Shown one piece after another: positions 1 through 15,197 of a DNA stretch of 64,000 bases. Position 1 is the stretch's first letter. Every line of letters starts with the position of its first letter. Origin of the DNA: Burkholderiales bacterium (GTDB lineage: Bacteria; Pseudomonadota; Gammaproteobacteria; Burkholderiales; JACQAP01); NCBI GenBank assembly GCA_045810225.1, contig JBJMWI010000028.1, positions 18,947 through 82,946 on the forward strand, read 5' to 3'. Below the pieces are notes generated by a model, which was not told where the DNA came from, did no database searches, and saw only the letters and a program-made list of their open reading frames with translations. The translations under genes and the position numbers were made by a program.

Positions 1-600
1 TTGGTGCAAACAGACATGAAGAAATTGATCGCCTACTCATCAATATCACACATGGGCTTCGTTACGCTGGGTATCTTCCTGTTCAGTCCACTCGGGATGG
101 AAGGTGCAGTCATGCAGATGGTGTCGCATGGATTTGTTTCCGGCGCGCTGTTTCTCTGTGTCGGCGTGCTTTACGATCGCATGCACTCGCGTTTGATTGC
201 GGACTATGGCGGGGTGGCCAACAAGATGCCGGTATTTGCTGCATTCTTTATGTTGTTCGCAATGGCAAACTCGGGCTTGCCGGGCACCAGCGGATTTGTC
301 GGCGAATTCCTGGTTGTCCTTGGAGCGATGCACGCGAACTTCTGGTATGCCGCCATCGCCGCAACGACACTGCTGTTCGGCGCCGCATACACGCTGTGGA
401 TGTACAAACGAGTCATCTTTGGCGTGATTGCGAACGCTCAAGTCAAATCGCTGGTTGACCTAAAAGCCCGCGAAGGGCTGGTACTTGCTCTTGTTGCGCT
501 GGCAATACTGGGCATGGGACTGTATCCGCAAGCGTTCGCCGGCGTGCTGCATTACTCGGTCAATGACCTGCTGGCGCTGGCAATCAAGAGCAAAATTTAG
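1..600 (+). CDS. nuoM: NADH-quinone oxidoreductase subunit M, C-terminal part (5' end outside window)
   Basis: Frame is open from base 1 to TAG at 598-600. Polytopic membrane protein with the complex I antiporter-like block [15 protein letters not shown]. nuoN follows directly. Confidence 0.9.
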
Positions 601-601
601 C

Positions 602-2053
602 ATGGCCTACGAAATTCCGGATCTTCTTCTGGCGGCGCCTGAGATATTCATGCTGACGATGGTTTCGATTATCCTCATCGTCGATTTGTTTCTGCCAGAT
701 CGCCGCCGTGTCTGGACGTATATTCTTACCCAGGTCACGCTCGTTGCAGCCGCAGGAATCATTCTTGTTGCTGGCGGCGAAGACGTGGCTTACACGTTCA
801 ACGGCATGTTTGTCGGCGATCCGATGGCGGACGTCCTGAAAATCACGGTGTGCCTGACAGTAGCGGTGATGCTTGCTTATTCGCGCTCCTATGCACAGGT
901 TCGCGGGATGTACAGGGGAGAATTCTTCGTGTTGTCGCTGTTTGCGACGCTGGGCATGATGGTGATGATATCGGCGAATCACTTCCTGGTGCTTTACCTC
1001 GGTTTGGAACTCATGTCGTTGTCGCTTTATGCCATGGTGGCTCTGCCCCGCGATTCCGGCATAAGCACCGAGGCGGCAATGAAATATTTTGTGCTGGGCG
1101 CACTATCATCGGGCATGTTGCTTTACGGCATATCGATGATCTATGGCGCGACTGGTTCACTTGATATTACGGAAGTGGCGCAGCGCATTGCGGACGGGGA
1201 CGCCATTCCAACCATCCTGATCTTTGGCCTGGTCTTCGTTGTCGCAGGCATCGGTTTCAAGCTTGGCGCAGTGCCTTTTCACATGTGGATACCGGATGTC
1301 TATCACGGTGCGCCCACCGCCGTAACGTTGCTGATCGGTACTGCTCCGAAGCTGGCCGCTTTTGCTTTCATTATTCGTCTGCTGGTCCAAGCTCTGGGAC
1401 TTCAGCAATTGCTGGTGGAGTGGCAGCAGATGCTGGTGCTGCTCACCGTGGCCTCGCTGGCGCTCGGCAATATCACCGCAATCGCGCAAACCAACCTCAA
1501 GCGCATGCTGGCTTATTCGACGATTTCGCACATGGGATTTCTATTGCTTGGGATTCTGAGTGGAACGATAGACGGATTCAGCGCCGCAATGTTTTATACG
1601 ATGGTGTACGTGCTCATGGGGTTGGGAACCTTCGGCATGATCTTGTTGTTGTCTCGCGAAGGTTTCGAAGCGGAAAATCTGGAAGACTTCAAAGGCCTGA
1701 ACCAGCGTAATCCCTGGTACGCCTTTGTAATGCTGATGCTGATGTTTTCCATGACGGGCATACCTCCGACGGTGGGTTTCTGGGCGAAACTGTTTGTGCT
1801 GCAGGCGGCCCTGGCTACGGGATACGTTTGGCTGGTGGTGATTGCAGTACTGTTCTCAGTGATCGGGGCGTTCTATTACTTGCGCGTGGTCAAGCTTATG
1901 TATTTCGACGCGCCCACCGACACTCATGCTATCGAAGCCTATGCGGACGTCCGCGCACTAATGTCAGTCAACGGGCTTGCGATCATCGTACTCGGACTGA
2001 CCCCCGGGGCTTTACTCGCGCTATGCCAACGCGCAATTCAGCTATCCCTATGA
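602..2053 (+). CDS. nuoN: NADH-quinone oxidoreductase subunit N
   Basis: ATG at 602 ([16 protein letters not shown]), 2 nt after the nuoM stop. About 14 hydrophobic segments and conserved [15 protein letters not shown] and [10 protein letters not shown] blocks typical of NuoN. The longer ORF from 485 is an upstream read-through. Confidence 0.9.
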
Positions 2054-2598
2054 ATTCAGACTTCACCGAAAAGAAGATCACTTCCCGGGCGGCCTATCGT
2101 GGCAAGCTGCTCAAAGTAAATGAAGACGAGGTGCGTCTGCCAGATGGCGGAACTGCGTTGCGCGAATATGTTCTGCATCCGGGCGCCGCAATCATCCTGC
2201 CGTTATTCGATGATGGCACCGTGCTTTTGGAGCGGCAATTTCGTTACCCACTGGGCAAGCATTTCTATGAGCTGCCGGCGGGAAAGTTAGAGCCAAATGA
2301 GCCGCCGCTTGAAACGGCGAAGCGGGAACTCCTTGAGGAGACCGGGTATGCGGCTGCGGAATGGCGACAGTTGGGCCGATTTCATCCCTGCGTCGGCTAC
2401 TCTGACGAAGTGATCGATTTTTTTCTTGCGCGCAAACTCGAATTCAAAAGCACGAAACTCGATGAAGGCGAATTCCTGGAAACCCTGCGCGTGCCGCTGA
2501 TAGAAGCAATAGAATGGATCCATAGCGGGCGGATCAGCGATACCAAAACTATTCTCGGCTTGTTCTGGGCCGAGAAACTAACCAAGGAAAACTGGTAG
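2050..2598 (+). CDS. NUDIX hydrolase (ADP-ribose pyrophosphatase-like)
   Basis: ATG at 2050 overlaps the nuoN stop (ATGA). Nudix box [23 protein letters not shown] matches GX5EX7REUXEEXGU. Confidence 0.8.
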
Positions 2599-2611
2599 AG
2601 CGCGTTTAGTT

Positions 2612-4579
2612 TCAGGCCTGCTTGATCTTGCGCTGTTGAGCTTGTTCCGAGACTGCCGCGGGAAACGGCGTCGGGTGAGCGAACAGAAATCCCTGGCCAT
2701 ACTGGACGCCCATTTCGATCAGGATGGCCATGACAGCCTGATCCTCAACCCATTCCGCAATCACCTGTTTTTTCAGGCCGCGCGCCACATCGCAAAGCGC
2801 ACGCACGAACAGCCGGCTGGCACCATCTGCAGCAAGTTCGCGCACGAAGCTGCCATCGATCTTGAGATAGTCCACTTCGAAACGCTTGAGGAAATAAAAA
2901 GAACTGAACCCTGCGCCGAAATCGTCCAATGCAAAACGGCAGTTCAGGTGTTTCATCTGCGCGATGAATTCCTGTGTTACATCGACACTCGACATTGCTG
3001 CCGTTTCGGTGATCTCGAATACCAGCTGCGAGTGATCTATCGGCGCGGCAGCCAGCATGTTGTGGAAACGTCGCACCCAATGCGGATCGGAAATGCTGGT
3101 GCGCGACAAATTTACAAAATAGCGCGTCTTTTGGCCGCGATACCCCTTCAAGACTTCGATTACTTTGCTAACCACGCGCAAGTCAAGCTCCTGCGCCATT
3201 CCCAGCGACTCCGCAACCTCCAAAAATTCTCCGGGCGGCACTATGCCACCGCTGCGGTCAACTACCCGCATCAGGATTTCATGGTGGATTATTGCTTGAT
3301 CCGCAAGCCGGATCACAGGCTGGGAATAAAGCACGACCCGATTCTCGTCCAGAATCTCTCGTAATTCCCGTGCCCAGTGCACGCGCTTGTGTGTGCTGCG
3401 CAAGTCGTCCGGCTTCTGGTCGTGGAGCCGGACACGGTTGCGGCCGTCGTCCTTCGCCTGATACATCGCGATGTCGACGTTTGCAAGCAGTGCGGCTACG
3501 TCAGAGCCATGGAAAGGGTAGGTCGCTACGCCGACCGAACCGGTAAGCGTCGACAGACAACCCTGCCCCGGGACCGGAAATTTGTAGCGGCGCAATGCCG
3601 AGAGCATGCGCTCACCTACTTTGGCCGCCTCACTGCGTAACGCGTTCGGCAGGTGCATCGCAAACTCATCTCCGCCCAGCCGGAATACCTGGACGCCTTC
3701 GTCTTTGACCAGGTCCTTCAACAGCCCGCCGATAGCGATCAACAATTGATCACCGGTGCGATGGCCAAAATTGTCATTGATATATTTAAAATGGTCGACA
3801 TCGAGCAATGCGACCGAGCCTTTTTCGCCTTCCGCCAAGGCGAATTCCAGGGCTTTTTGCAGCGACACGCGGTTGGGCAGTCCGGTCAGCGCATCATGCG
3901 TGGCCAGGCGCTCAATTTCCAGCGCTGCCCGATGCTGTTCGGTGACATTGCGCGCGGTACCACGCAATCCAACGATTCGGCCCTCGTCGTCATGCGTCAC
4001 GCGGGCGTTGATGCCGACCCAGCGGTCCGAGCCGTCAGTGGAAATCAGGTGTGTGAGGTAGTTCTTGACCTCGCCGCTTCTGCGCAGCGCCGAAAGAAAC
4101 CGACGATTCGATACGTGCTGGGGCCGCGCTTCATAGTCAAAAAAACAGCCACCGAGCAGGTCCTTGGGTCGCAGACCGAACAAATCGACGCAGGCATTGT
4201 TCAGGTACGTGAAGCGGCCCAGCGCATCTGTGGTCCAAATCAGGTCGTGGGAGGTCTCTACCAGATCGCGGTAGCGGGATTCGCTCTCCAGCAACAACTG
4301 GATGATGCGCCGCTTTTCCTTCAAAGTTCGACGCGCAGCGGCCAGTTGATCTTCCATCCGCCCCGTTTCCGGCTTGGCAGAATCGGATTTATCGTTTGCC
4401 GTTACGCTAGTGGAACCGGCCAGTCCATCGATAATTTCGCGCGCATAACGCCGATGGCCGCCATCTGTCCTGCGTGCGACCAACACCCCCTGCGCATCCC
4501 ATCGCCGCAGTTTTTGCAACGGGATGCCGAGGCGCGCAGCCGCTTCCTGAATCGTGTACTCGGAAAGATCCTGCGCCAT
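2612..4579 (-). CDS. HTH (MerR/excisionase-type)-PAS-GGDEF-EAL c-di-GMP turnover protein, RpfR-like core
   Basis: N-terminus YTIQEAAARLGIPLQKLRRWDAQGVLVARRTDGGHRRY is a MerR/HTH_17-type helix-turn-helix. A PAS region follows (LIWTTDALGRFTYLNNA...). GGDEF motif is intact (RLGGDEFAM). EAL domain carries EILMR, EITE, DDFGAGFSS, EWVE and QGFLF motifs. The gene lies 57 bp downstream of the RpfF-like gene on the same strand. Confidence 0.85.
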   Translation of the reverse strand: MAQDLSEYTIQEAAARLGIPLQKLRRWDAQGVLVARRTDGGHRRYAREIIDGLAGSTSVTANDKSDSAKPETGRMEDQLAAARRTLKEKRRIIQLLLESESRYRDLVETSHDLIWTTDALGRFTYLNNACVDLFGLRPKDLLGGCFFDYEARPQHVSNRRFLSALRRSGEVKNYLTHLISTDGSDRWVGINARVTHDDEGRIVGLRGTARNVTEQHRAALEIERLATHDALTGLPNRVSLQKALEFALAEGEKGSVALLDVDHFKYINDNFGHRTGDQLLIAIGGLLKDLVKDEGVQVFRLGGDEFAMHLPNALRSEAAKVGERMLSALRRYKFPVPGQGCLSTLTGSVGVATYPFHGSDVAALLANVDIAMYQAKDDGRNRVRLHDQKPDDLRSTHKRVHWARELREILDENRVVLYSQPVIRLADQAIIHHEILMRVVDRSGGIVPPGEFLEVAESLGMAQELDLRVVSKVIEVLKGYRGQKTRYFVNLSRTSISDPHWVRRFHNMLAAAPIDHSQLVFEITETAAMSSVDVTQEFIAQMKHLNCRFALDDFGAGFSSFYFLKRFEVDYLKIDGSFVRELAADGASRLFVRALCDVARGLKKQVIAEWVEDQAVMAILIEMGVQYGQGFLFAHPTPFPAAVSEQAQQRKIKQA

Positions 4580-4636
4580 ATAGCCTGATGCCGCATTTCG
4601 CCGGTTGATCGGACCGGCGCATGACCCGCCGGAACT

Positions 4637-5593
4637 TCAGTGTAACTGTCGTGCCATGACAATGTCGTGCTGATGCTCGCTCAGCCGTAAGTCGTTCTGG
4701 CGGGACACCAAACGTTGCATGAGCTTGAGATCACGGCTCGTTAAACTCAATGCCGTATCGACCCAAACCTCAACTACAGCCAGCAGTTCCTCGTAGTCCA
4801 ACTTATGGACGCAACGCCTTGCGGCCGCGATACCTGCCAATGCGTTGCGATGGCGGCCGCGGGATTTAATCAAATTGACGACTTCCGCCTCGCCACAGCC
4901 CTGTTCCACAACCAGATCTATTACGCCCTGCGCCAGCATATCATCGGCACTGTACAGTTTGCCACTCGATATCAGTCGCTCGGCTGCCCGCTTGCCGACC
5001 TTGCGCTCCAGAAAAGAATACGCGCCCATGCCCGGAAACAGGTTGAACAGAATTTCCGGAAACCCAAAGCGGGCCTGGCGCTCGGCAACAATCAGGTCTG
5101 AAGAAAGGGCGGCTTCAAAGCCGCCCCCGAGACATTGGCCCTGCACCAGCGAAATGGTCGTAATGGGTAATCCATGCCCCTGATAATTCCGGTAGAGCAC
5201 GTTTACGCATGCTAGGCCATATTCCAGCAAGGCTTGGCGGTCCTGTGCATCAATCAGTCGCGCAAACAGGCACAGATCGCCCCCGAGATTGAATACGCCC
5301 GGGACTCTTGAGCCGAGTACTGCGTACTCTAATGGCAGGTTTTTACCCTTGTGCTGGAAAGTTCCGCCACTGTGGCTCACAAACTGGCAGTATCGGTCGA
5401 GATCCTGAAGCAGGCCGGGATTAAAGTTCGGTCGCGGTCCCGGGTTCCACCGAAGCCACATTGCGTGCTGCTCGGCGTCATAAAAGGCAGACAATTGCTC
5501 GGAGAAGAAATATTCGGTTTTGAGGGCTTCAGCGGAACCTGTGGAGCGGGACGGTGCGGGAAGCAATAGTTCCCGCGGGACATTCATGTCCAT
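4637..5593 (-). CDS. rpfF: DSF-family signal synthase-like crotonase (RpfF-like enoyl-CoA hydratase superfamily)
   Basis: Blocks VFNLGGDLCLF, LVQGQCLGGGFEAALSSDLIVAE, FGFPEILFNLFPGMGAYSFL and VEVWVDTALSL line up with my recollection of Xanthomonas RpfF (VFNLGGDLALF, ALGGGFEAALS, LPEVLFDLFPGMGAYSF, TEIWVDTAMQL). This includes both catalytic Glu positions. SD AGGAGA lies 6 nt upstream of the ATG at 5593. Confidence 0.75.
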   Translation of the reverse strand: MDMNVPRELLLPAPSRSTGSAEALKTEYFFSEQLSAFYDAEQHAMWLRWNPGPRPNFNPGLLQDLDRYCQFVSHSGGTFQHKGKNLPLEYAVLGSRVPGVFNLGGDLCLFARLIDAQDRQALLEYGLACVNVLYRNYQGHGLPITTISLVQGQCLGGGFEAALSSDLIVAERQARFGFPEILFNLFPGMGAYSFLERKVGKRAAERLISSGKLYSADDMLAQGVIDLVVEQGCGEAEVVNLIKSRGRHRNALAGIAAARRCVHKLDYEELLAVVEVWVDTALSLTSRDLKLMQRLVSRQNDLRLSEHQHDIVMARQLH

Positions 5594-5890
5594 TTTAGTT
5601 CTCCTGTTGTTGAGGCAGTGCAGATAACCGCCGCTTCTCGTTTCCCCCGGAAAGGCGGTAATCCAGTGTGGACTTTAGCCCCAAACGCATGTAAAAAGCA
5701 AATCTAACACTATGATAGGTTTAACTTTTTAGTAGTGTAGTCAATGTGTTGGATTAAGTACGGAGCGTAAGGCGACAAAAACAGCGTGAAATCCCCTGTT
5801 TATTCAGTGGGAAGCGTTTCACACAAATGATTCAACTATCAAAAGCAAACTCCGGATTACTAATTCAATAATTTAAAAATTGGAGTGCGA

Positions 5891-8092
5891 ATGTTGTCCT
5901 CGCTGCGCCTGTTGCTTCGCTGTCTTCTACGGGTTCGTGTATTGGGAGACCTGGAGCCGTTTTCCAATGCGGACCGGCTGCTCGTCGTCGCGAATCATCA
6001 TTCACGTCTGGACGCCGTGGTACTGGCGTTGTTCCTGCCCCGTGATCCGATTGTCATCGTGCCTCCCGATGAAGCAGGGTCGACGTTCAGGCGCTGGCTG
6101 CTGGCCAGAATCCGCCATGAGGTCCTGGATTTAAATCATCCGTTAAACATGAAGCGGGTGCTCCGCTTGCTGCGAAGCGGGATTCCGGTGATCCTTTTTC
6201 CGGAAGGGCGCGTGGTTGAAAACGGCGCTGTCATGAAGATCTACCCGGTACCGGCACTGATCGCGATGAAAAGTGGCGCAAGCGTGCTGCCTGTACACGT
6301 CGAAGGTGCTGGGCAATGGTTCAGTCGATCCGCTTCAACATCGCTGTTGGGACGTTGGTTGCCGCGAGTAACGCTGCGGATTTTCTCCGCGATCCGCATC
6401 GATGGCGGCGCGGCCGGCACTGCACGGCGCCGGCGTGCGTTTGCCACCCGCCGGCTTGCTGCAGTCATGCAAACAATGGCCGTTCAGTCGCATGCCTGCA
6501 AGCCACTCTTTGAATGTTTTATCGACGCGGCTTTTGCGCACGGCCGCGGCGCCATGATCATGGAAGATCAGGGCGACAAGTGGTACAGCTACGGAGATAT
6601 CCTGCGCATGAGTCTGGCACTGTCGCGCCTGTTGCGGCGCCATACCGCAGACCGCGAAAACATTGGGGTGCTATTGCCAAACGTGGTGAACGCCGTTGCG
6701 GTGGTAATGGCCTTGTCGGCGGCGAGGCGGGTGCCCGCGATATTTAATTATTCGGCCGGCCCACTGGCCGTTGAATGCGCGCGAGTGGCGGCGGGAATTC
6801 GTACCGTTATCACTTCACGCAAATTCATCGAGCAGGCGCATCTGCATTCCTTGCTGGACGCTTTGCCCGGATGCGCGATTATCTATGTAGAGGATTTGCG
6901 CGCCGAGCTCCGATTTACGGATAAAGTTTGGCTGACAGGTTTTGCCCTGCGCTTTCCTCGGCTCGCCATTACCAAACAATCGACGCTGGACCCGGCGGTT
7001 GTCTTATTTACGTCCGGTTCTGAGGATCGCCCCAAGGGCGTGGCGCTTTCGCATCATGCCGTAGTGGCCAATATCGCTCAGATGCGCGCAGTGTTCGATT
7101 TTTCGCCAAAGGATAAAGTTCTGAATCCGCTGCCGCTATACCACGCCTATAGCTTTACCGCGGGCGTCATGCTGCCACTCATGACGGGCACGCGGGTTAA
7201 TTTATTCATTTCGCCCCTGCGTTATCGCGCCATACCGGAAGTGGCGTATCGCCGCAATTGCACCATTTTGTTCGGGACCAGTACCTTCCTATCGTTTTAC
7301 GCCCGTTACGCCAATCCGATGGATTTCAGCCGCCTGCGGCATGTCATCTCAGGAGGTGAAAAACTTTCGCCCGAAGTTGCCAGACTGTGGATGGAAAAAT
7401 TTGGCGTTCGCATCATGGAAGGCTACGGCTCGACCGAGTGTGCGCCGGTGATTTGTCTCGCCACAACAGCGGCCTTCCGGCGGGGTACGGTTGGCGCTTT
7501 CCTGCCCGGCGTGGAATATCAGATCGAAGCCATGGACGGAGTCGACAAGGGGGGCGTGCTCCATGTGCGGGGTCCGAATTTGATGCTCGGTTATTACCGC
7601 TACCAGAATCCCGGTGTTATTGAACCGCCGAAGTCTCCGCTCGGCGAAGGATGGTACGACACCGGCGATGTGGTGGAAATCGACCATGACGGACTGGTTA
7701 CTATTTCCGGACGCGTAAAACGCTTCGCGAAAATCGCCGGGGAGATGGTGTCCCTTGATATGATCGAGCACGTTGCGCGCGAAGCTTCTCCGGATTTTCA
7801 CCACGCAGCGGTCTTGAACGTGCAGGATTTTGGCGGCGAAACCACCGTGCTCTTTACCACTGATGACCGGCTTACCCGCGGACGACTGCTCGAAGCGGCG
7901 AAACAGCTGGGAACACACGACTTATCCGTGGCCCGCCGGCTGATTCAACTCAAAGAGTTGCCCCTGCTTGCGTCGGGGAAAATAGATTATGTCTCATTGA
8001 AGGCGTTGACTGAGGGGGACGATGTCAAACGTTTGCTTGCGCTGGCCATGGCTCAGCCGGTGGCAGACCACGAAACACCGCGCCCGTCGTGA
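5891..8092 (+). CDS. aas: Bifunctional lysophospholipid acyltransferase / acyl-ACP synthetase (Aas-type)
   Basis: N-terminal acyltransferase HX4D motif (VANHHSRLDAV) and PEGR block. C-terminal AMP-binding domain (FTSGSEDRPKGVALSH, GYGSTE, YDTGD). Same two-domain order and size as E. coli Aas. ATG at 5891 after GGAG; a GTG at 5885 is an alternative start. Confidence 0.8.
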   Translation: MLSSLRLLLRCLLRVRVLGDLEPFSNADRLLVVANHHSRLDAVVLALFLPRDPIVIVPPDEAGSTFRRWLLARIRHEVLDLNHPLNMKRVLRLLRSGIPVILFPEGRVVENGAVMKIYPVPALIAMKSGASVLPVHVEGAGQWFSRSASTSLLGRWLPRVTLRIFSAIRIDGGAAGTARRRRAFATRRLAAVMQTMAVQSHACKPLFECFIDAAFAHGRGAMIMEDQGDKWYSYGDILRMSLALSRLLRRHTADRENIGVLLPNVVNAVAVVMALSAARRVPAIFNYSAGPLAVECARVAAGIRTVITSRKFIEQAHLHSLLDALPGCAIIYVEDLRAELRFTDKVWLTGFALRFPRLAITKQSTLDPAVVLFTSGSEDRPKGVALSHHAVVANIAQMRAVFDFSPKDKVLNPLPLYHAYSFTAGVMLPLMTGTRVNLFISPLRYRAIPEVAYRRNCTILFGTSTFLSFYARYANPMDFSRLRHVISGGEKLSPEVARLWMEKFGVRIMEGYGSTECAPVICLATTAAFRRGTVGAFLPGVEYQIEAMDGVDKGGVLHVRGPNLMLGYYRYQNPGVIEPPKSPLGEGWYDTGDVVEIDHDGLVTISGRVKRFAKIAGEMVSLDMIEHVAREASPDFHHAAVLNVQDFGGETTVLFTTDDRLTRGRLLEAAKQLGTHDLSVARRLIQLKELPLLASGKIDYVSLKALTEGDDVKRLLALAMAQPVADHETPRPS

Positions 8093-8118: not shown

Positions 8119-9219
8119 CTATTTTTGGTAGCTGATGCGGTACACGGCATTCGCAGTATCGTCTGAAACCAGCAATGCGCCATCGGGCATGACCAGTACA
8201 TCGACCGGGCGGCCCCACGCACGCTCGTTTTCCATCCAGCCGCCTGCGAATTCTTCGTACTTCTCTACGGTTTTGCCATCCCGGTTCAGAGTAACCATCA
8301 TCACCCGATAGCCGCTTTTCTTGCTGCGATTCCAGGAACCGTGCTGCGCAATGAAAATACGGTTGGAATATTCCGGGGGAAACATTGTTCCGGTATAGAA
8401 ACGCAATCCGTTGGGCGCCACATGGCCTCCCTGCTTCAGGGCCGGAGGCTGGAATTCGCTGCACTTGCGCTTGGCGCCGTATTCCGGGTCAGGCGTATCG
8501 CCTTGGTGGCAGTACGGAAAGCCGAAATGCAGGCCTGGCGTGGGCGCGTGGTTGAGTTCGCACGATGGCATGTCGTCGCCCATCATGTCGCGGCCATGTT
8601 CGTTGAACCACATTTCGCGCGTGCGCGGATCCCAATCGAAACCTACGGTGTTACGGATGCCGCGGGCAAAGACCTGAAACTGAGTTCCGTCCGGCTTCAT
8701 GCGGTGTATCGCGGCGTACACGTCCGGGTTTGGTTCACAGATATTGCAAGGTGCGCCGACCGGTACGTAAAGCCAGCCATCAGGTCCGAACGCGATAAAT
8801 TTCCAGCCGTGGTGAGTTTCGCGCGGAAGTTTGTCGAATACCACCACCGGTGCGGGCGGCTTCGCGAGATTGGCTTCGATATTGTCAAAGCGCAGGATCC
8901 GGTTGATTTCCGCGACGTAAAGGGCGCCTTCGCGGAACGCTACGCCGTTGGGCGCGTTTAAGCCCTGCGCGACGGTGATTACTTGGTCTACTTTGCCATC
9001 GCGGTTGGAATCGACCAATGCGTAAACCGTATCGGTGCGGGTGCCAACAAAAACGGTTCCCTTGTCACCAAGCGCCAGCGAACGGGCATTCTCGACCTCG
9101 GCGTACAAGTCAGCCTTGAATCCAGCCGGCAGCCTGATGCGATCGACCGGCGGGGCCGCCCCCGCAGTGCCGGCAAACACTGTCAAAACCAAGAACCAGT
9201 TGGCGAGGCGCGAACCCAT
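8119..9219 (-). CDS. PQQ-dependent sugar dehydrogenase (sorbosone/glucose dehydrogenase GSDH family), secreted
   Basis: ATG at 9219 with SD GGAGAA gives signal peptide MGSRLANWFLVLTVFAGTAGAAP. Beta-propeller style repeats and HGRDMMGDD, HFGFPYCH and HVAPNG blocks are typical of the soluble GSDH family. The ORF extension to 9432 is read-through. Confidence 0.75.
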   Translation of the reverse strand: MGSRLANWFLVLTVFAGTAGAAPPVDRIRLPAGFKADLYAEVENARSLALGDKGTVFVGTRTDTVYALVDSNRDGKVDQVITVAQGLNAPNGVAFREGALYVAEINRILRFDNIEANLAKPPAPVVVFDKLPRETHHGWKFIAFGPDGWLYVPVGAPCNICEPNPDVYAAIHRMKPDGTQFQVFARGIRNTVGFDWDPRTREMWFNEHGRDMMGDDMPSCELNHAPTPGLHFGFPYCHQGDTPDPEYGAKRKCSEFQPPALKQGGHVAPNGLRFYTGTMFPPEYSNRIFIAQHGSWNRSKKSGYRVMMVTLNRDGKTVEKYEEFAGGWMENERAWGRPVDVLVMPDGALLVSDDTANAVYRISYQK

Positions 9220-9293
9220 GGGTTTTTCTCCTTCAAACTGCATTGAGCTTGGCAAGGAGACAGCGTATCCCGCAACGGGGTTCCGGCCGGCAC

Positions 9294-9322
9294 CTTGAAC
9301 GCATAAGATAGCGCCCCTATCT
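9294..9322 (+). promoter_or_regulatory. Candidate sigma32 (RpoH) heat-shock promoter of htpG
   Basis: CTTGAAC (9294-9300), a 13-nt spacer, then CCCCTATCT (9314-9322). This fits the proteobacterial sigma32 consensus CTTGAAA-N13-14-CCCCATNT. It sits about 36 nt upstream of the htpG ATG, with SD AGGAGA at 9345-9350. Confidence 0.55.
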
Positions 9323-9357
9323 GGCCATATTGTTACAAGTCCACAGGAGAGCAAGTT

Positions 9358-11265
9358 ATGGGCGAAGCCGCCACTCGGGAGACGCTGGGCTTCCAGACCG
9401 AAGTCAAACAATTGCTGCAGTTGATGATTCACTCCTTGTACAGCAACAAGGAGATATTCCTGCGAGAACTGATTTCAAACGCATCGGATGCCTGCGACAA
9501 GCTGCGTTTCGAGGCGCTGACCGACCCCGGGCTGTTTGAAGATGACGCTGACCTGAAGATTCTTGTCTCGCTGGACCGTACTGCGCGGACCATCACTGTG
9601 ACTGACAACGGCATTGGCATGTCGCGTCAGGAAGTCATCGACAATATCGGCACCATTGCAAAATCCGGGACCCGGGAGTTTTTCGGGCGGCTCACGGGCG
9701 ACCAGGCCAAGGACGCCAGCCTGATCGGACAATTCGGCGTGGGATTCTATTCTTGTTTCATTGTCGCCGACAACGTTACGTTGACCACCCGTCGCGCCGG
9801 CCTCGGCAAAGAGCATGGCGTGCGCTGGGAATCCCGCGGCGAAGGTGATTACACCATCGAGATCGTCGAAAAAAATTCGCGCGGCACGGAGGTGACCCTG
9901 CACTTGCGTGAAGGTGAGGACGAATTGCTGGAAGGCTTTCGCCTGCAGTCGATCATCCGCAAGTATTCCGACCATATCTCCCTGCCGATCTTGATGAACA
10001 AGCAGGAATGGGACAAGGACAAGGGGGAACACGTTACCCGCGACGAGCTGGAGAAGGTCAATCAGGCTTCCGCCTTATGGGCACGGCCAAAGTCAGAGAT
10101 TACCGAAGAGCAGTACCGCGAGTTCTACAAACATGTGAGTCATGACTTTGAAGCGCCGCTTGCCTGGGTGCATGCAAAGGTAGAAGGAAAATCAGAATAC
10201 ACGCAGCTTCTCTACATACCCTCGCGCGCGCCGTTCGATCTGTGGGACCGAGAGCATCGTCATGGCATCAAGCTCTATGTGCGGCGCGTCTTTATCATGG
10301 ATGATGCCGAGCAACTCTTGCCTGCTTATTTGCGATTTGTACGCGGAGTAGTGGACTCCAACGATCTGCCGCTGAATGTCTCCCGTGAGATTTTGCAGGA
10401 ATCGAAAGATGTCGAAACCATCCGCAAAGGTTGCGTTAATAAGGTGCTGGGCCTGCTGGAGGACCTCACGCAGAACCAGAAGGAGAAATACACGGCTTTC
10501 TGGAAAGAATTCGGCCGTGTGCTGAAAGAGGGCGTGGGCGAGGATTGGTCGAACAAGGAGCGCATCGCCAAACTCCTGCGGTTTGCCTCAACGCATACCG
10601 ACAGCGAAGAGCAGAGCGTCAGCCTGTCGGATTACCTGGCTCGCATGAAGGAAGGGCAGGAGAAAATTTACTACATCACCGCTGACAGCTTTGCGGCCGC
10701 GAAGAACAGCCCGCACCTCGAAATTTTTCGCCAGAAAGGCATCGAAGTGTTGTTGCTGTCGGACCGTGTCGATGAATGGGTGGGATCGAATCTAACCGAA
10801 TTCGAGGGCAAACCGATGGCATCGGTTGCCAAAGGCGACCTTGATCTGGGCAAGCTGGCCGATGAGGACAAGAAAGAGCAGGAGAAGGAGGCTGGTGAGA
10901 ACAAGGAACTCGTCGAAAACATCGGGAAAAGCCTGGGTGATCGGGTGAAGCAGGTGCGCGTAACGCTAAGGCTTACATCATCGCCGGCCTGCCTGGTGGC
11001 CGACCAGCATGGGATGAGCGGCAATCTAGAGCGCATGCTGAAGGCGGCAGGCCAAACTGTGCCGGGCAGTAAACCTGTTCTGGAAATTAATCCACACCAT
11101 CCACTGGTACAACTGCTGAAAGGCGAAACGGACCAGGGACGTTTTGGCGACTGGAGCCACATCCTGTTCGATCAGGCCCTACTCGCCGAAGGTGGACAGC
11201 TCGACGATCCTGCGTCCTTTGTCAAACGCCTGAACGAAATGATGCTGACATTGGCTAAAAAGTGA
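9358..11265 (+). CDS. htpG: Molecular chaperone HtpG (Hsp90)
   Basis: 635 aa. N-terminal GHKL ATPase signature [39 protein letters not shown] and GQFGVGFYS, colinear with HtpG. Confidence 0.95.
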
Positions 11266-11283: not shown

Positions 11284-12093
11284 CTACTTGCCAGTCCAGC
11301 GCGGCGGGCGCTTCTGCATGAAGGCATCGATGCCTTCCCCGACGTCCTCTGCCATCATATTGCATGCCATGACCTCCGCTGCGTACTCGTAGGCGGCTTC
11401 CATGCCCATCTCCATCTGGGTATAGAACATTTTCTTGCCCGTGGTGACGGCCACTGTGGATTTAGCGATGATGGCGTCCGCAAGCGCCTTGACTTCAGCG
11501 TCAAGGTGCTCCGCCGGCACAACGCGATTCACAAGACCGCGCTGTTTAGCCGTCGCTGCGTCGATAAAATCGCCGGTAAGCAGCATTTCCATGGCTTCTT
11601 TGCGCGATACATTTCGGCCAAGTGCTACGCTGGGCGTGGAGCAAAACAGGCCGACATTGATTCCGGATACGGCAAATCGGGCCGTGTCGGAGGCGACGGC
11701 AAGATCGCATTGAGCAACCAACTGACAACCCGCCGCCGTTGCAATTCCGTGTACCCGGGCAATAACCGGTTGCGGCAGATGCACGATTTTCATCATGACA
11801 TCGCTGCATTGGGCGAACAGTTTGTCGTAATAGTGCTTGCTTGGATTGGCCCGCATTTGCTTTAAATCGTGGCCAGCGCAAAAAGCCGGCCCGGAGCCCG
11901 CAATTACCACCACCCGCACCGATGTGTCTTTGCCAACGGCGTCCAGCATTGACTGCAGGTCCGTCAGCAACTCTTCGCTGAGCGAGTTGTATTGCCTGGG
12001 GCGGTTCAGCGTGATGGTTGCGATACCGCTTGTGTCCTGGCGTAGCAGGATCGGCTCGACATGGACTTGTTGGGCAGCTGCGGTGGCAGGCAT
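11284..12093 (-). CDS. Enoyl-CoA hydratase/isomerase family protein
   Basis: Crotonase fold blocks VVVIAGSGPAFCAGHDL, ARVHGIATAAGCQLV and FAVSGINVGLFCSTP. Confidence 0.85.
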   Translation of the reverse strand: MPATAAAQQVHVEPILLRQDTSGIATITLNRPRQYNSLSEELLTDLQSMLDAVGKDTSVRVVVIAGSGPAFCAGHDLKQMRANPSKHYYDKLFAQCSDVMMKIVHLPQPVIARVHGIATAAGCQLVAQCDLAVASDTARFAVSGINVGLFCSTPSVALGRNVSRKEAMEMLLTGDFIDAATAKQRGLVNRVVPAEHLDAEVKALADAIIAKSTVAVTTGKKMFYTQMEMGMEAAYEYAAEVMACNMMAEDVGEGIDAFMQKRPPRWTGK

Positions 12094-12155: not shown

Positions 12156-15100
12156 TCAAGCCTGTAAATGAAATGCAGGCGGAGGCGATGCCTGCCCGTC
12201 AAGAAACTGCTCGAATGCTTCGGCACCCAATGGCTTGCTGAACAGAAAGCCCTGGATTTCATCACAGCCGTAAGCATGCAGGAATTCAAGTTGCGGCACC
12301 GTCTCCACGCCTTCAGCGACTACTTCCAGATTCATGTTGTGCGCCATGGCGATGATGCTGCGCGTGATAGAAGCGTCATCGCGATCGTCAGGCAGATCGC
12401 GGATGAATGAACGGTCTATCTTCACGCAGTCAATCGGAAAGCGCTTCAGATAGGCGAGCGACGAATAACCGGTACCGAAATCGTCGATGGCAATGCGCAC
12501 GCCAGTATCGCGCAGAGCCTGCAGCACCTTGATTGCCCCCTCGGCATCGCGCATGACCATACTTTCAGTAATTTCCAACTCCAGATTTTCGGGTGGAAAA
12601 CCGGTTCTCTCAAGCGCGCCGCTGACGCGCATCGCCAAGCCATCGTCATACAGTTGCCGGACCGACAGATTTACCGCTACGCGCAATCCGGCGTGGCCGG
12701 CATCGCGTAAAGCCTGCCCGTGGCGGCAGGCCTCAGTCAGCACCCAGTCTCCAATCGGTACGATCATCCCTGTTTCTTCAGCGATGCCAATGAAAGCGCT
12801 CGGTTGCATGAGACCTTTCTCAGGATTTTGCCAGCGCACCAGAGCTTCCATTCCCGCCACGTTACGCGACGAGACCTGCATCTTCGGCTGAAACTGAAGC
12901 ATGAATTCGTGCCGTTCCAATGCGCGCCCCAGGGAAGATTCTATGGATAGCCGCTCCCGGCCGTGCGCATCCATGTCAGGCGAAAAATATTGAAACCCGT
13001 TCTTGCCGGATTCCTTGGCCCGATACATGGCGACGTCGCTGTTGCGCAGCAAGGTCTGCAAATCGGTGCCGTCATGCGGACTGGTACTGATGCCGATACT
13101 TGCCGTAATGACGAATTCCTGCTCGTCGATCGTCAGCGGACGCGACGTTGCCTCAAGGATCTTGTTTGCCACGGCGCTGACTGCTTCAACGCTGGCGGCG
13201 TCCTGCATCAGGATCACGAACTCATCTCCGCCAAGGCGCGCGAGGACATCGCTGTCGCGCAGGCAGGTGCGCAGACGAGCCGCAATCTGCTTCAGCAACT
13301 GGTCGCCCGCTTCGTGTCCAATGATGTCATTGATGTTCTTGAATCGGTCGAGGTCGACCACCATCAGGGCGGATTTCAGGCCCTGTCGCTGGTGGATCGT
13401 AATTGCCTGCTCGAACGCGCGCTGAAAATGTGCACGATTGGGAATGCCGGTCAGCTCATCGTGATAGGCGAGATACTCAATGTGTTCCTCGGCGCGCTTA
13501 CGGTCAGTAATGTCGCGGATGATCAAGCTGGCGCACAGCTTGCCCGAGCGGTCGCGAAACGTGGTGGAGGAAACGTCCACCGGCACCCAGCCGCCATCCT
13601 TGCGGCGCATCTTAAGTTCGCCACGGGCACCCCCTTCGCGCCGGTGTTCTTCCACCATGGCCTCCACGCGAGGATCGTCCGGCTCGGTGAGGCCTTCCCG
13701 ACCGAGCTTGCGCAATTCACTTTCGGAATACCCTAGCAACCGGCACGCCTGTTCGTTGGCCGACAATATCCTGCCGTCCGAGCGCATCAGCAGTACTGCG
13801 TCAATACTGTGCTCGAACAGTGCCTGGTAGCGCGCTTCGCTCTCGCGCAGCGTGTCCACCAGTGCGCGCTGCTCGGTAATGTCTTCATTGACTGCTACGC
13901 CACCAACGATCTCGCCTTCAGCAGAGACGATCGGCGCGGTCGAATGCAGTACAGTCTTGCGGGTGCCATCGGAACATTCAACATCCAGCACTTCGTTGCG
14001 CGATGACTCGCCTCTGGTCAACGTGAGCGCCATTCCGCGATCGGCAGTTTGCGGCAATTCTTTTTTCCGGTCGGTGAAATAATGCAAATCTTTTTCGGCA
14101 TCGCCCCAGATCCGGGCGCTGGCAGCATTGCTGAGAACGACATGTCCCTGCTTGTCCGCCACCCGAACGCCGACCGGCAAAGTCTCGAACACTTGCCGCA
14201 GCATGCGCTCGTTGCGTCCCACCGAACGCGCCAACTCGTTGCGGCGGATTAATCCTTGCATGAGTAACCACGCCAGCAAGACAGTCGCGAGGGTAAAAGC
14301 AGCCAGTATCGCCACCACCACATTGACTTCATGCCGCCAGCCCGCCAGCACTTCATCCAGGCTCAGACCGACTTGTGCTGTCAAAGATGTGCCGGCTATC
14401 GGGCGCGCGCTGTAAATCCGGGGCACGCCGTCGATCTCGCTGACCTTGTGATAAGTACCACTAGCCAACGTCGTATTGGACCCGGTCGGAACGCCTAACC
14501 ATTTCGGAGCCTCGGGTGCGCGCGCGATCAACTCTCCGCGCTCGTGCATCAGGGCGCTGGCGCCCGCTCGTCCTACGTCGATGTTGTCAACTAGCGGTTT
14601 GAATGCGGCTGGCTCCAACGCGACCGCAACCACCCCGGCGAACTGGCCTTGCGTATCTTCGAGGCGTCGGGCGGCGACGACAAACCATCCGGCGTTACGT
14701 TGGTCTGTCGCCGGCTTACCGATATAGAGCCGACTGCCCGCGTGCGAACGATGCCAGCGGAAATAGTCGCGATCTGACAAATCAATGGGCGCTGCGGGAC
14801 GAATATTGGAGTCCTGAAGCAGCACGCCGCGCGCGTTGAGAACGAACAAGGTGCGAGCGTTGCGCAGTTGTGCGGCTTGTTCTGCAAGCAAAGCATGCAA
14901 AGCAGCCCCCGAGGGATCGCGAAGCACTGGCATTCGCTGCCAGGACACCGCGGTGTTGTTTAGCGTCTGGTCTACCGACTGCAACAGCCGCTCCGTGCGC
15001 TCGTCAACGATCTGGGCAAGGTACGCGCTGGTCCGTTCTCCATCGCGTATGGCCGCCTCACGCGATTTGCTTAGCATCAAAAATGCCAGCGCGAAAAGGG

Positions 15101-15197
15101 TGATGACCAGCAGAACGGCGAGTCCTGGGACAAGATAAAGCAGAAAACGCTCTCGCGGTTGCGGGCGCTCGTAGGACGAAAGGGGCTGAGGCGTCAC
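12156..15197 (-). CDS. Membrane sensor with periplasmic Cache-like domain, two PAS domains, GGDEF and EAL
   Basis: 1013 aa. An N-terminal TM segment, a periplasmic region of about 270 aa and a second TM segment come first. Two PAS regions follow, then GGDEF (RLGGDEFVIL). EAL domain has EALVRW, ELEITES, DDFGTGYSS, EGVE and QGFLF. Confidence 0.85.
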   Translation of the reverse strand: MTPQPLSSYERPQPRERFLLYLVPGLAVLLVITLFALAFLMLSKSREAAIRDGERTSAYLAQIVDERTERLLQSVDQTLNNTAVSWQRMPVLRDPSGAALHALLAEQAAQLRNARTLFVLNARGVLLQDSNIRPAAPIDLSDRDYFRWHRSHAGSRLYIGKPATDQRNAGWFVVAARRLEDTQGQFAGVVAVALEPAAFKPLVDNIDVGRAGASALMHERGELIARAPEAPKWLGVPTGSNTTLASGTYHKVSEIDGVPRIYSARPIAGTSLTAQVGLSLDEVLAGWRHEVNVVVAILAAFTLATVLLAWLLMQGLIRRNELARSVGRNERMLRQVFETLPVGVRVADKQGHVVLSNAASARIWGDAEKDLHYFTDRKKELPQTADRGMALTLTRGESSRNEVLDVECSDGTRKTVLHSTAPIVSAEGEIVGGVAVNEDITEQRALVDTLRESEARYQALFEHSIDAVLLMRSDGRILSANEQACRLLGYSESELRKLGREGLTEPDDPRVEAMVEEHRREGGARGELKMRRKDGGWVPVDVSSTTFRDRSGKLCASLIIRDITDRKRAEEHIEYLAYHDELTGIPNRAHFQRAFEQAITIHQRQGLKSALMVVDLDRFKNINDIIGHEAGDQLLKQIAARLRTCLRDSDVLARLGGDEFVILMQDAASVEAVSAVANKILEATSRPLTIDEQEFVITASIGISTSPHDGTDLQTLLRNSDVAMYRAKESGKNGFQYFSPDMDAHGRERLSIESSLGRALERHEFMLQFQPKMQVSSRNVAGMEALVRWQNPEKGLMQPSAFIGIAEETGMIVPIGDWVLTEACRHGQALRDAGHAGLRVAVNLSVRQLYDDGLAMRVSGALERTGFPPENLELEITESMVMRDAEGAIKVLQALRDTGVRIAIDDFGTGYSSLAYLKRFPIDCVKIDRSFIRDLPDDRDDASITRSIIAMAHNMNLEVVAEGVETVPQLEFLHAYGCDEIQGFLFSKPLGAEAFEQFLDGQASPPPAFHLQA

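Follow-up and report, generated by a model that had tools for sequence, protein, structure and literature searches.

Signalling by cis-2 fatty acids of the DSF (diffusible signal factor) family is perceived through two main receptor designs, the RpfC/RpfG pair and RpfR with its partner regulators. Here we set beside both designs a locus found in a 64,000-nucleotide stretch of a Burkholderiales bacterium genome (contig JBJMWI010000028.1 of assembly GCA_045810225.1, positions 18,947 to 82,946; the whole stretch is called the window below). At this locus a gene for an RpfF-family crotonase, the putative signal synthase, is followed by a gene for a protein, called the receptor from here on for brevity, that joins a MerR-type helix-turn-helix (HTH) domain to PAS, GGDEF and EAL domains, and both are preceded by a divergent gene for an Aas-like enzyme. 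We favour, with moderate confidence, the reading that the three genes form a DSF-family signalling module of a new layout, in which the HTH-PAS-GGDEF-EAL protein would be the cognate receptor.

In the RpfF/RpfC/RpfG clusters (Xanthomonas, Methylophaga, Sideroxydans, and Leptospirillum), which hold the closest out-group synthases and have the hydrolysis of cyclic di-GMP (c-di-GMP) as their output, perception involves a membrane hybrid kinase and a REC-HD-GYP regulator that are convergent, whereas in the window a single cytoplasmic protein combines an EAL domain with an HTH. The place of RpfB, the acyl-CoA ligase of the rpf clusters, is taken at the window locus by an Aas-like acyl-acyl carrier protein (acyl-ACP) synthetase/acyltransferase.

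In Burkholderia cenocepacia (RpfF_Bc/RpfR) and Cronobacter, an RpfF-family synthase likewise adjoins a soluble PAS-GGDEF-EAL protein, and RpfR likewise carries an additional N-terminal module before its PAS domain. This module is the RpfF-binding FI domain (PMC6361424), whereas the protein of the window has a MerR-type HTH there. The convergent arrangement of rpfR and rpfF has been described together with the inhibition of the synthase protein by the FI domain (PMC6361424); we found this arrangement in all of 80 Burkholderiaceae loci, whereas the pair in the window is co-directional. RpfR reaches DNA through GtrR (PMC12838280), as an earlier note on this DNA had correctly stated. A 2022 census of the sensory inputs of c-di-GMP enzymes has RpfR as the sole fatty-acid sensor and mentions no HTH fusions (PMC8846402). 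The earlier note knew of no characterised example of the fusion architecture, and our literature search indeed found no MerR-fused RpfR-like protein and no description of a protein with a MerR-type HTH, PAS, GGDEF, and EAL domains linked to rpfF.

The genes of the locus are the following.

4637 to 5593, minus strand: RpfF-family crotonase, putative DSF-family cis-2-enoic acid synthase (318 aa, ATG start)
2612 to 4579, minus strand: one-component protein with MerR-type HTH, linker-helix, PAS, GGDEF, and EAL (655 aa, ATG start)
5885 to 8092, plus strand: Aas-like bifunctional gene, PlsC-type acyltransferase plus acyl-ACP synthetase (735 aa), divergent from the crotonase gene

Family membership of the crotonase

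The crotonase scores above the Pfam gathering score for ECH_1, and its top four matches in the PDB are all RpfF structures (3m6m, 6dgn, 5fus, and 7zq7, with E values of 3e-51 to 2e-49), while DspI and the structures of ordinary enoyl-CoA hydratases (ECHs) come at 1.5e-13 or weaker, some 37 orders of magnitude behind. The motifs that the earlier note had quoted as RpfF hallmarks are present (GGGFE at residues 156 to 160 and FPE at residues 178 to 180), and the catalytic glutamate pair E160 and E180 aligns with E141 and E161 of the Xanthomonas campestris pv. campestris enzyme and is invariant in 85 of 85 aligned RpfF-like sequences. On the NCBIfam model NF006452 the crotonase reaches 343 bits (cut-off 177), and RpfF_Bc, a validated synthase of the Burkholderia diffusible signal factor (BDSF), reaches 411 bits. 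With 211 bits, the crotonase does not reach the cut-off of 550 of NF053515, the equivalog model named "diffusible signal factor synthase RpfF". This failure says little, the model being xanthomonad-specific, because the validated RpfF_Bc likewise fails it (189 bits); the synthases of the Sideroxydans and Methylophaga rpfFCG clusters behave alike. The crotonase is 37% identical to RpfF_Bc and 47% identical to a Sideroxydans RpfF from an rpfFCG cluster.

In a neighbour-joining tree, the clade of the window is monophyletic inside the RpfF radiation and distant from the housekeeping ECH of the window (11284 to 12093), so that the crotonase nests with RpfF and not with ordinary hydratases. The latter gene, which the earlier note had named as an ordinary ECH for comparison, scores 438 bits on NF006008 (cut-off 313) and has Gln and Gly in the alignment columns of the two catalytic glutamates of RpfF. 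The nearest out-group synthases (44 to 52% identity) precede convergent genes for RpfC (a HisKA-HATPase-REC-Hpt kinase) and RpfG (REC-HD-GYP). By every sequence test available, then, the crotonase is a member of the DSF-synthase family and not a housekeeping hydratase, in agreement with the earlier note, and its product is most likely a cis-2-unsaturated fatty acid signal, made through dehydration of a 3-hydroxyacyl-ACP and hydrolysis of the thioester.

Linkage of the synthase and receptor genes

A genome scan with the crotonase returned 41 species-level loci at 57% identity or more, 37 of them with enough downstream DNA to be judged. The HTH-PAS-GGDEF-EAL gene follows the crotonase gene on the same strand in all of these (37/37), and the Aas-like gene is divergent upstream in every crotonase-anchored locus with enough flank. 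The reciprocal scan, made with an alignment of the HTH and PAS domains of the receptor, matched about 264 genome stretches; among the best 78 with an HTH match, to which the following counts are limited, the crotonase gene lies directly upstream of the receptor gene in 77, and the divergent Aas-like gene is present in 65 of 69. This near-obligate pairing is not due to chance, since it is kept in both sets of loci independently, and the gene pair is thus conserved in related genomes as the earlier note would have it. The window protein itself was also found on soil-type metagenome contigs.

The sole exception among the receptor-anchored loci (L234, positions 1 to 5306; the fetched loci are numbered with the letter L) has genes for HtpG and a sorbosone-dehydrogenase-like protein directly before the receptor gene, while aas and the crotonase gene are missing, leaving a "solo" receptor. 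The gene order HtpG, glucose/sorbosone dehydrogenase, [aas-rpfF], receptor is common to the window and this locus.

The gaps between crotonase and receptor genes are mostly of 7 to 250 bp across loci. The open reading frames (ORFs) of the window give a gap of 57 bp (4580 to 4636) between two genes on the minus strand, exactly as the earlier note had them, and this gap contains one further feature.

4614 to 4632, minus strand: GC-rich hairpin CCGGCG-N7-CGCCGG without a T-run, in the gap between the crotonase and receptor genes (read from the sequence)

The closest orthologous loci (L001 to L005 and L009) share an equivalent CCGGC...GCCGG hairpin with CCGAyCAACCGGC after it, and a scan of the 57-bp gap for terminator-like sites called none. 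Judging from this layout, it is plausible that the crotonase and receptor genes form one operon, in which the hairpin may set the ratio of synthase to receptor expression. Unrelated lineage-specific ORFs lie between the two genes in L017 (7953 to 8741), L019, L020, and L025 (5646 to 7295). One inserted ORF codes for 262 aa without a Pfam match, which we take to resemble a REP-associated tyrosine transposase, and another for 549 aa with a GHSLGG lipase-like motif (L025). The operon evidently tolerates insertions.

The divergent Aas-like protein has the Pfam domains Acyltransferase and AMP-binding, and the motifs HHSRLD (HX4D) and TSGSEDRPKG can be read in its translation. On NF005959 it scores 740 bits with full-length coverage and misses the cut-off of 886.

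A different wiring was seen in alphaproteobacterial rpfF-rpfC clusters (L048, L058, L072, L074, and L077), where a GGDEF-EAL protein apparently replaces the HD-GYP protein RpfG; Pfam gives REC-PAS-GGDEF-EAL for L048 only, which is another variant of DSF output.

Domains of the receptor

Pfam assigns MerR/MerR_1/HTH_17 to residues 8 to 51 of the receptor, PAS to 102 to 210, GGDEF to 226 to 382, and EAL to 404 to 636, all above gathering scores, and the same architecture is found in all orthologues, which are 73 to 100% identical. With the additional information from an AlphaFold2 (AF2) model and from conservation, the protein divides as follows.

4427 to 4558, minus strand: MerR-type winged HTH, aa 8 to 51 (PF00376 41.5 bits, cut-off 28.2; PF13411 33.3 bits)
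4256 to 4411, minus strand: variable linker, aa 57 to 71, then conserved long helix, aa 72 to 108 (AF2 and conservation)
3929 to 4276, minus strand: PAS sensor domain, aa 102 to 217 (Pfam PAS, PAS_4, and PAS_9)
3434 to 3904, minus strand: GGDEF domain, aa 226 to 382 (Pfam 140.8 bits, GGDEF motif intact)
2672 to 3370, minus strand: EAL domain, aa 404 to 636, with the full set of catalytic residues (Pfam 220.8 bits)

The N-terminus, in which the earlier note had recognised a MerR-type HTH from the stretch YTIQEAAARLGIPLQKLRRWDAQGVLVARRTDGGHRRY (present at aa 8 to 45), is indeed a winged HTH of this type. AF2 models the first 55 residues confidently (predicted local distance difference test, pLDDT, of 76 to 85) as strand-helix-helix-strand-helix, the profile of the HTH family matches the MerR-family proteins TipAN, CarH, BldC, BrlR, SoxR, and MtaN in the PDB, and Foldseek retrieved BmrR-DNA complexes. 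The motif LRRWD..G.L.A.RT.GGHRRY is invariant in 28 orthologues. The FI domain is lacking, as also proposed in that note: the alignment with RpfR of B. cenocepacia (29% identity over PAS-GGDEF-EAL) leaves residues 1 to 105 without a match.

After the HTH come a linker (aa 57 to 71) that is probably disordered according to the AF2 model and a helix (aa 72 to 108), modelled with a pLDDT of only 35 to 59, that continues into the PAS domain and is a candidate dimerisation or signalling helix. In MerR-family regulators a long dimerisation helix, forming an antiparallel coiled coil, comes straight after the HTH. Mean identity among 35 orthologues is 17% in the linker and 83% in the helix; the HTH (76%), the helix, and the PAS domain (73%) are more conserved than the GGDEF (63%) and EAL (65%) domains. 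In the PAS domain, the orthologue alignment has C145, N158, R159, R160, R186, W187, N191, R193, R206, and R210 as invariant residues. A search of a representative library with residues 1 to 225 was dominated by multi-PAS giants, with few 50%-identity clusters that have a colinear HTH and PAS.

In the enzymatic part, whose closest solved relative is RbdA/PA0861 and not RpfR, the LGGDEF motif is kept in about 31 of the 35 orthologues, and direct reading of the GGDEF domain revealed no RxxD I-site. The EAL residues E434, R438, N490, E522, E525, K573, E612, and Q629 are invariant across the 35 orthologues and D552 and D553 are kept in 34 of them; the EAL domain is predicted from this to be catalytically active.

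The receptor does not pass the PdeR orthology model NF007474 (279 bits against a cut-off of 782). The term "RpfR-like" used in the earlier note therefore holds for the PAS-GGDEF-EAL architecture next to rpfF, and does not extend to orthology, gene orientation, the N-terminus, or the ligand residues (see below). In sequence terms the protein is RpfR-like in architecture and context, not an RpfR orthologue.

A conserved palindrome upstream of the synthase gene

Alignment of the intergenic region between aas and the crotonase gene with its orthologues led to two features.

5699 to 5723, no strand: 10-3-10 palindrome, (C)AAATCTATCA-N3-TGTTAGATTT(G), putative operator of the HTH domain
5672 to 5701, minus strand: predicted promoter-like element toward the crotonase gene, TTGCTT-18 nt-TAAAGT

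The 64-kb window has no second copy of the palindrome, against an expectation of 0.21 chance matches. Of 105 non-redundant orthologous upstream regions, 87 contain it, with a median distance of 128 nucleotides to the crotonase start, and its core positions are 94 to 100% conserved. It is absent from all fetched rpfF loci that have no HTH receptor, Burkholderia included. Some lineages have variant dyads that are still symmetric (for example AATCTC...GAGATT in L037 and CTGACA-N3-TGTCAG in L207). The TTGCTT of the promoter-like element overlaps the right arm of the palindrome; a scan of positions 2400 to 6000 for sigma-70 consensus promoters called nothing. An integration host factor (IHF) site, suggested by the match of WATCAANNNNTTR to the centre of the palindrome in the window, was rejected on account of the variation among sites in the sixth base and the central N3.

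When the collected genomes were scanned for the exact core, 118 loci were found, among them 78 aas/rpfF loci, about 10 low-GC chance matches in unrelated phyla, and 28 other palindrome-bearing intergenic regions from the same betaproteobacterial clade of metagenome-assembled genomes (MAGs). By our own calculation, about 3e-5 core matches are expected per 4-Mb genome at 60% GC. At least 13 of the 18 title-listed second-site loci come from MAGs whose receptor locus was also fetched. Apart from the palindrome, the extra sites have nothing in common in their flanks, either among themselves or with the rpfF locus, and for this reason they are not copies of a repeat element.

Examples of these second sites, among L245 to L359, are L275 (3194 to 3214), L317 (624 to 644), L276 (2234 to 2254), and L311 (1400 to 1420). 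A gene for a PAS-PAS-GGDEF-EAL protein of about 980 aa is the neighbour at 10 loci, accompanied at 5 by a gene for a 287-aa haem-oxygenase-like/TenA-family protein; other neighbours are an ABC exporter of about 735 aa (4 loci), a thiolase with a 126-aa ORF, a CheY-like regulator, and an RsaL-like HTH protein. TTGACT or TTGCTT follows the right arm without a gap at several sites, so that the dyad abuts a -35-like hexamer. Taken together, the extra sites suggest a small regulon. A hydrolase gene adjacent to the palindrome in L315 was compared with the 549-aa gene inserted in L025, and a link between them was dismissed, as the two are not homologous.

The sole DNA-binding protein encoded at the primary locus of the palindrome is the MerR-HTH receptor, and we infer that it binds this site.

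Proposed mechanism and alternatives

In the mechanism that we propose, in which the product, the PAS ligand, the HTH-palindrome contact, and the sign of regulation are what we infer, the synthase would draw on acyl-ACP intermediates to release a cis-2 fatty acid. Free fatty acids would be re-activated to acyl-ACP and returned to phospholipid by the Aas-like enzyme, which would thereby offset the promiscuous thioesterase activity of the synthase, a role like that of RpfB in Xanthomonas. A receptor dimer would sense the fatty acid through its PAS domains and shift c-di-GMP turnover through EAL and GGDEF, and its two HTH domains would bind the palindrome, overlapping the -35 region of the divergent promoters of aas and the rpfF-receptor operon. 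Binding would control aas, the receptor's own operon, and a few other promoters. The N-terminal module of RpfR feeds back on the synthase protein through its FI domain; here the module in that position would feed back on the synthase promoter.

Several observations weigh against this reading. Alignment of the receptor PAS with the RpfR PAS by hhalign gave a probability of 77% at 25% identity, with local shifts possible, and in this profile-profile alignment the BDSF contacts S169, N172, Y183, R187, and N202 of Cronobacter turicensis RpfR correspond to H155, N158, G169, N173, and A192, so that only N158 is kept out of five. The RpfR PAS was not found in the PDB by either single-sequence or profile searches with the receptor PAS. 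The AF2 models of the region are poor (mean pLDDT of 59 for residues 1 to 228 and 53 for the PAS domain modelled separately); their input alignments were shallow (120 listed close homologues), and we drew no inference about the pocket from them. The carriers are all betaproteobacterial MAGs (some labelled Pelomicrobium), and with all of them in one clade the co-occurrence of palindrome and receptor is confounded by phylogeny; another clade-specific factor could bind the site. The solo-receptor locus L234 has no palindrome. Classical MerR activators have their operator dyad within an over-long spacer of 19 to 20 bp between -35 and -10. The palindrome lies instead upstream of the -35-like element of the predicted promoter and overlaps it. 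With one of five contact residues kept, the argument for fatty-acid sensing by the PAS domain comes from gene linkage and not from the pocket.

The receptor might accordingly be a regulator of the synthase operon whose PAS domain senses another cue (such as redox state, oxygen, a flavin or haem cofactor, or a metabolite) and which determines when the signal is produced, with the signal perceived elsewhere. The missing RpfR ligand residues would fit this, as would the generic character of the closest sequence and fold matches of the PAS domain (the "light and redox sensing" kinase PAS 3eeh, PpsR, and LOV domains) and the invariant C145, which in our own alignment falls at the position of the reactive cysteine of LOV domains. 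The Foldseek matches (LOV and generic PAS) were treated as uninformative, however, and a LOV domain was rejected, since GGCFFDYE is read in place of the canonical GxNCRFLQ. A homology search of the 64-kb window found no homologue of RpfC or RpfG, and in this clade the receptor gene stands exactly where the nearest out-group synthases have their flanking rpfC/rpfG genes; such a replacement usually marks a synthase and its cognate receptor. The two known soluble DSF sensors, RpfR and RpfS, also have PAS domains that are dissimilar from each other (PMC4504480). Considering these points, we regard a different cue as unlikely.

We give about the same low weight to the idea that the palindrome is not the operator of this HTH, being instead the site of another clade-specific factor or a pair of back-to-back extended -10 elements. 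Each arm can be read as TGnTAGATT, and in addition to the shared ancestry and the solo receptor mentioned above, correlated change between half-sites, or between half-sites and the HTH, is weak or ambiguous. The weakness of this signal has an explanation, since neither the recognition helix QKLRRWD nor the ATCT/AGAT cores vary. Against the paired -10 elements, L037 and L207 changed both arms and kept the dyad symmetry while losing the T of TAGATT; the second sites lie upstream of single genes, often followed by TTGACT, as expected of an operator beside a -35 element; and positions of little importance to sigma-70 are 96 to 100% conserved. Against another factor, the locus codes for no DNA-binding protein other than the receptor.

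Least probable, and in our view very unlikely, is that aas and the crotonase gene form a unit of lipid metabolism or membrane remodelling without a diffusible signal, acting as an acyl-ACP dehydratase/thioesterase coupled to re-esterification, the downstream protein being a local transcriptional regulator: the conserved partner is a phospholipid-recycling enzyme, RpfF enzymes do set ordinary fatty acids free and influence the integrity of the membrane (PMC4504480; see also PMC8659556), and a thiolase locus is among the secondary palindrome sites, but the characterised members of the crotonase clade are all signal synthases and its closest out-group relatives stand in rpfFCG clusters, the regulator has domains for c-di-GMP turnover, as is typical of DSF output, the genes of the putative regulon include those of a further PAS-GGDEF-EAL locus and of an ABC exporter, a response regulator, and an RsaL-like HTH protein rather than genes of fatty-acid synthesis, and a solo receptor exists without the enzymes.

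None of these alternatives explains the whole pattern as economically as a signalling module does. The fuller claim, that one polypeptide is at once quorum-signal receptor, c-di-GMP enzyme, and sequence-specific transcription factor, and directly switches c-di-GMP turnover as well as its own synthase operon and a regulon in response to a cis-2 fatty acid from the adjacent synthase, we put forward more tentatively, as a possibility that falls somewhat short of an even chance.

Other genes of the window

The genes that flank the locus are of housekeeping type. Positions 1 to 2598 hold nuoM and nuoN (1 to 2053) and a NUDIX hydrolase gene (about 2050 to 2598), and positions 8119 to 11265 hold a sorbosone/glucose-dehydrogenase-like gene (8119 to 9432, minus strand) and htpG (9358 to 11265). 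A second c-di-GMP protein is encoded at 12156 to 15197 on the minus strand (dCache-PAS-GGDEF-EAL, 1013 aa). The ordinary ECH gene at 11284 to 12093 lies 62 bp downstream of it on the same strand, so that a crotonase and a GGDEF-EAL protein are paired a second time in the window.

Significance and comparison with known systems

The coupling of DSF signalling to c-di-GMP is known already; what is new here, and well supported at the genomic level, is the architecture of the receptor and its predicted operator. If the proposed mechanism is true, the family would represent a third, self-contained class of DSF perception, with sensing, second-messenger turnover, and promoter recognition in one protein. 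The DSF pathway would be shortened to a one-component circuit, and transcriptional feedback would take the place of the protein-protein feedback exerted by the FI domain of RpfR. The receptor would then be a natural fusion that mirrors the trans-acting pairs PdeR-MlrA and RpfR-GtrR, and, together with its defined (predicted) 23-bp operator, it would provide a small and transferable switch through which fatty acids control transcription. The family, with about 264 genome matches, would bring a large group of Betaproteobacteria from soil and groundwater, as yet uncultured, into DSF-type communication, and the predicted operator and the secondary sites allow the hypothesis to be tested in vitro with no need to grow the organisms.

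The Aas-like enzyme has counterparts in RpfB of Xanthomonas and DsfR of B. cenocepacia, AMP-forming enzymes that activate fatty acids and are likewise tied to DSF systems. RpfF acts on acyl-ACP, and an acyl-ACP synthetase reverses its thioesterase reaction in vitro (PMC4504480), while RpfB works against RpfF's thioesterase activity in vivo (PMC4504480). DsfR is a reported BDSF receptor that binds promoters (PMC12838280). Both are acyl-CoA ligases, whereas in the enzyme of the window an acyl-ACP synthetase is fused with a PlsC acyltransferase, and no DNA-binding motif has been reported for it.

A MerR-family HTH joined to a sensor module is also found in CarH/LitR, TipAL, and BrlR, in agreement with the profile matches of the HTH. 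In CarH, a one-component sensor, the MerR HTH is likewise N-terminal, and BrlR is a c-di-GMP-binding MerR-type regulator according to its PDB listing. The sensors of these proteins bind B12, thiostrepton, or drugs, however, and none of them has PAS-GGDEF-EAL enzymatic domains.

The coupling of an EAL protein to transcription is shared with the trigger phosphodiesterases of Escherichia coli, the PdeR-DgcM-MlrA system and PdeL. PdeR is the E. coli homologue of RpfR (PMC6361424) and controls the MerR-like factor MlrA, while PdeL has its own HTH and autoregulates (PMC10211494). For the receptor, binding to its own promoter, as by a PdeL-type protein, is suggested by the palindrome conserved in that promoter region. 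In the PdeR system the MerR-like factor is a separate protein, whereas the receptor of the window carries the HTH itself. Like PdeL, it has an HTH and a competent-looking EAL domain, as far as can be read from its residues, in one polypeptide, but the HTH of PdeL is of the LuxR type and comes without PAS or GGDEF, whereas the receptor combines a MerR-type HTH with both. Neither the pdeR nor the pdeL gene is linked to a gene for a signal synthase, unlike the receptor gene of the window.

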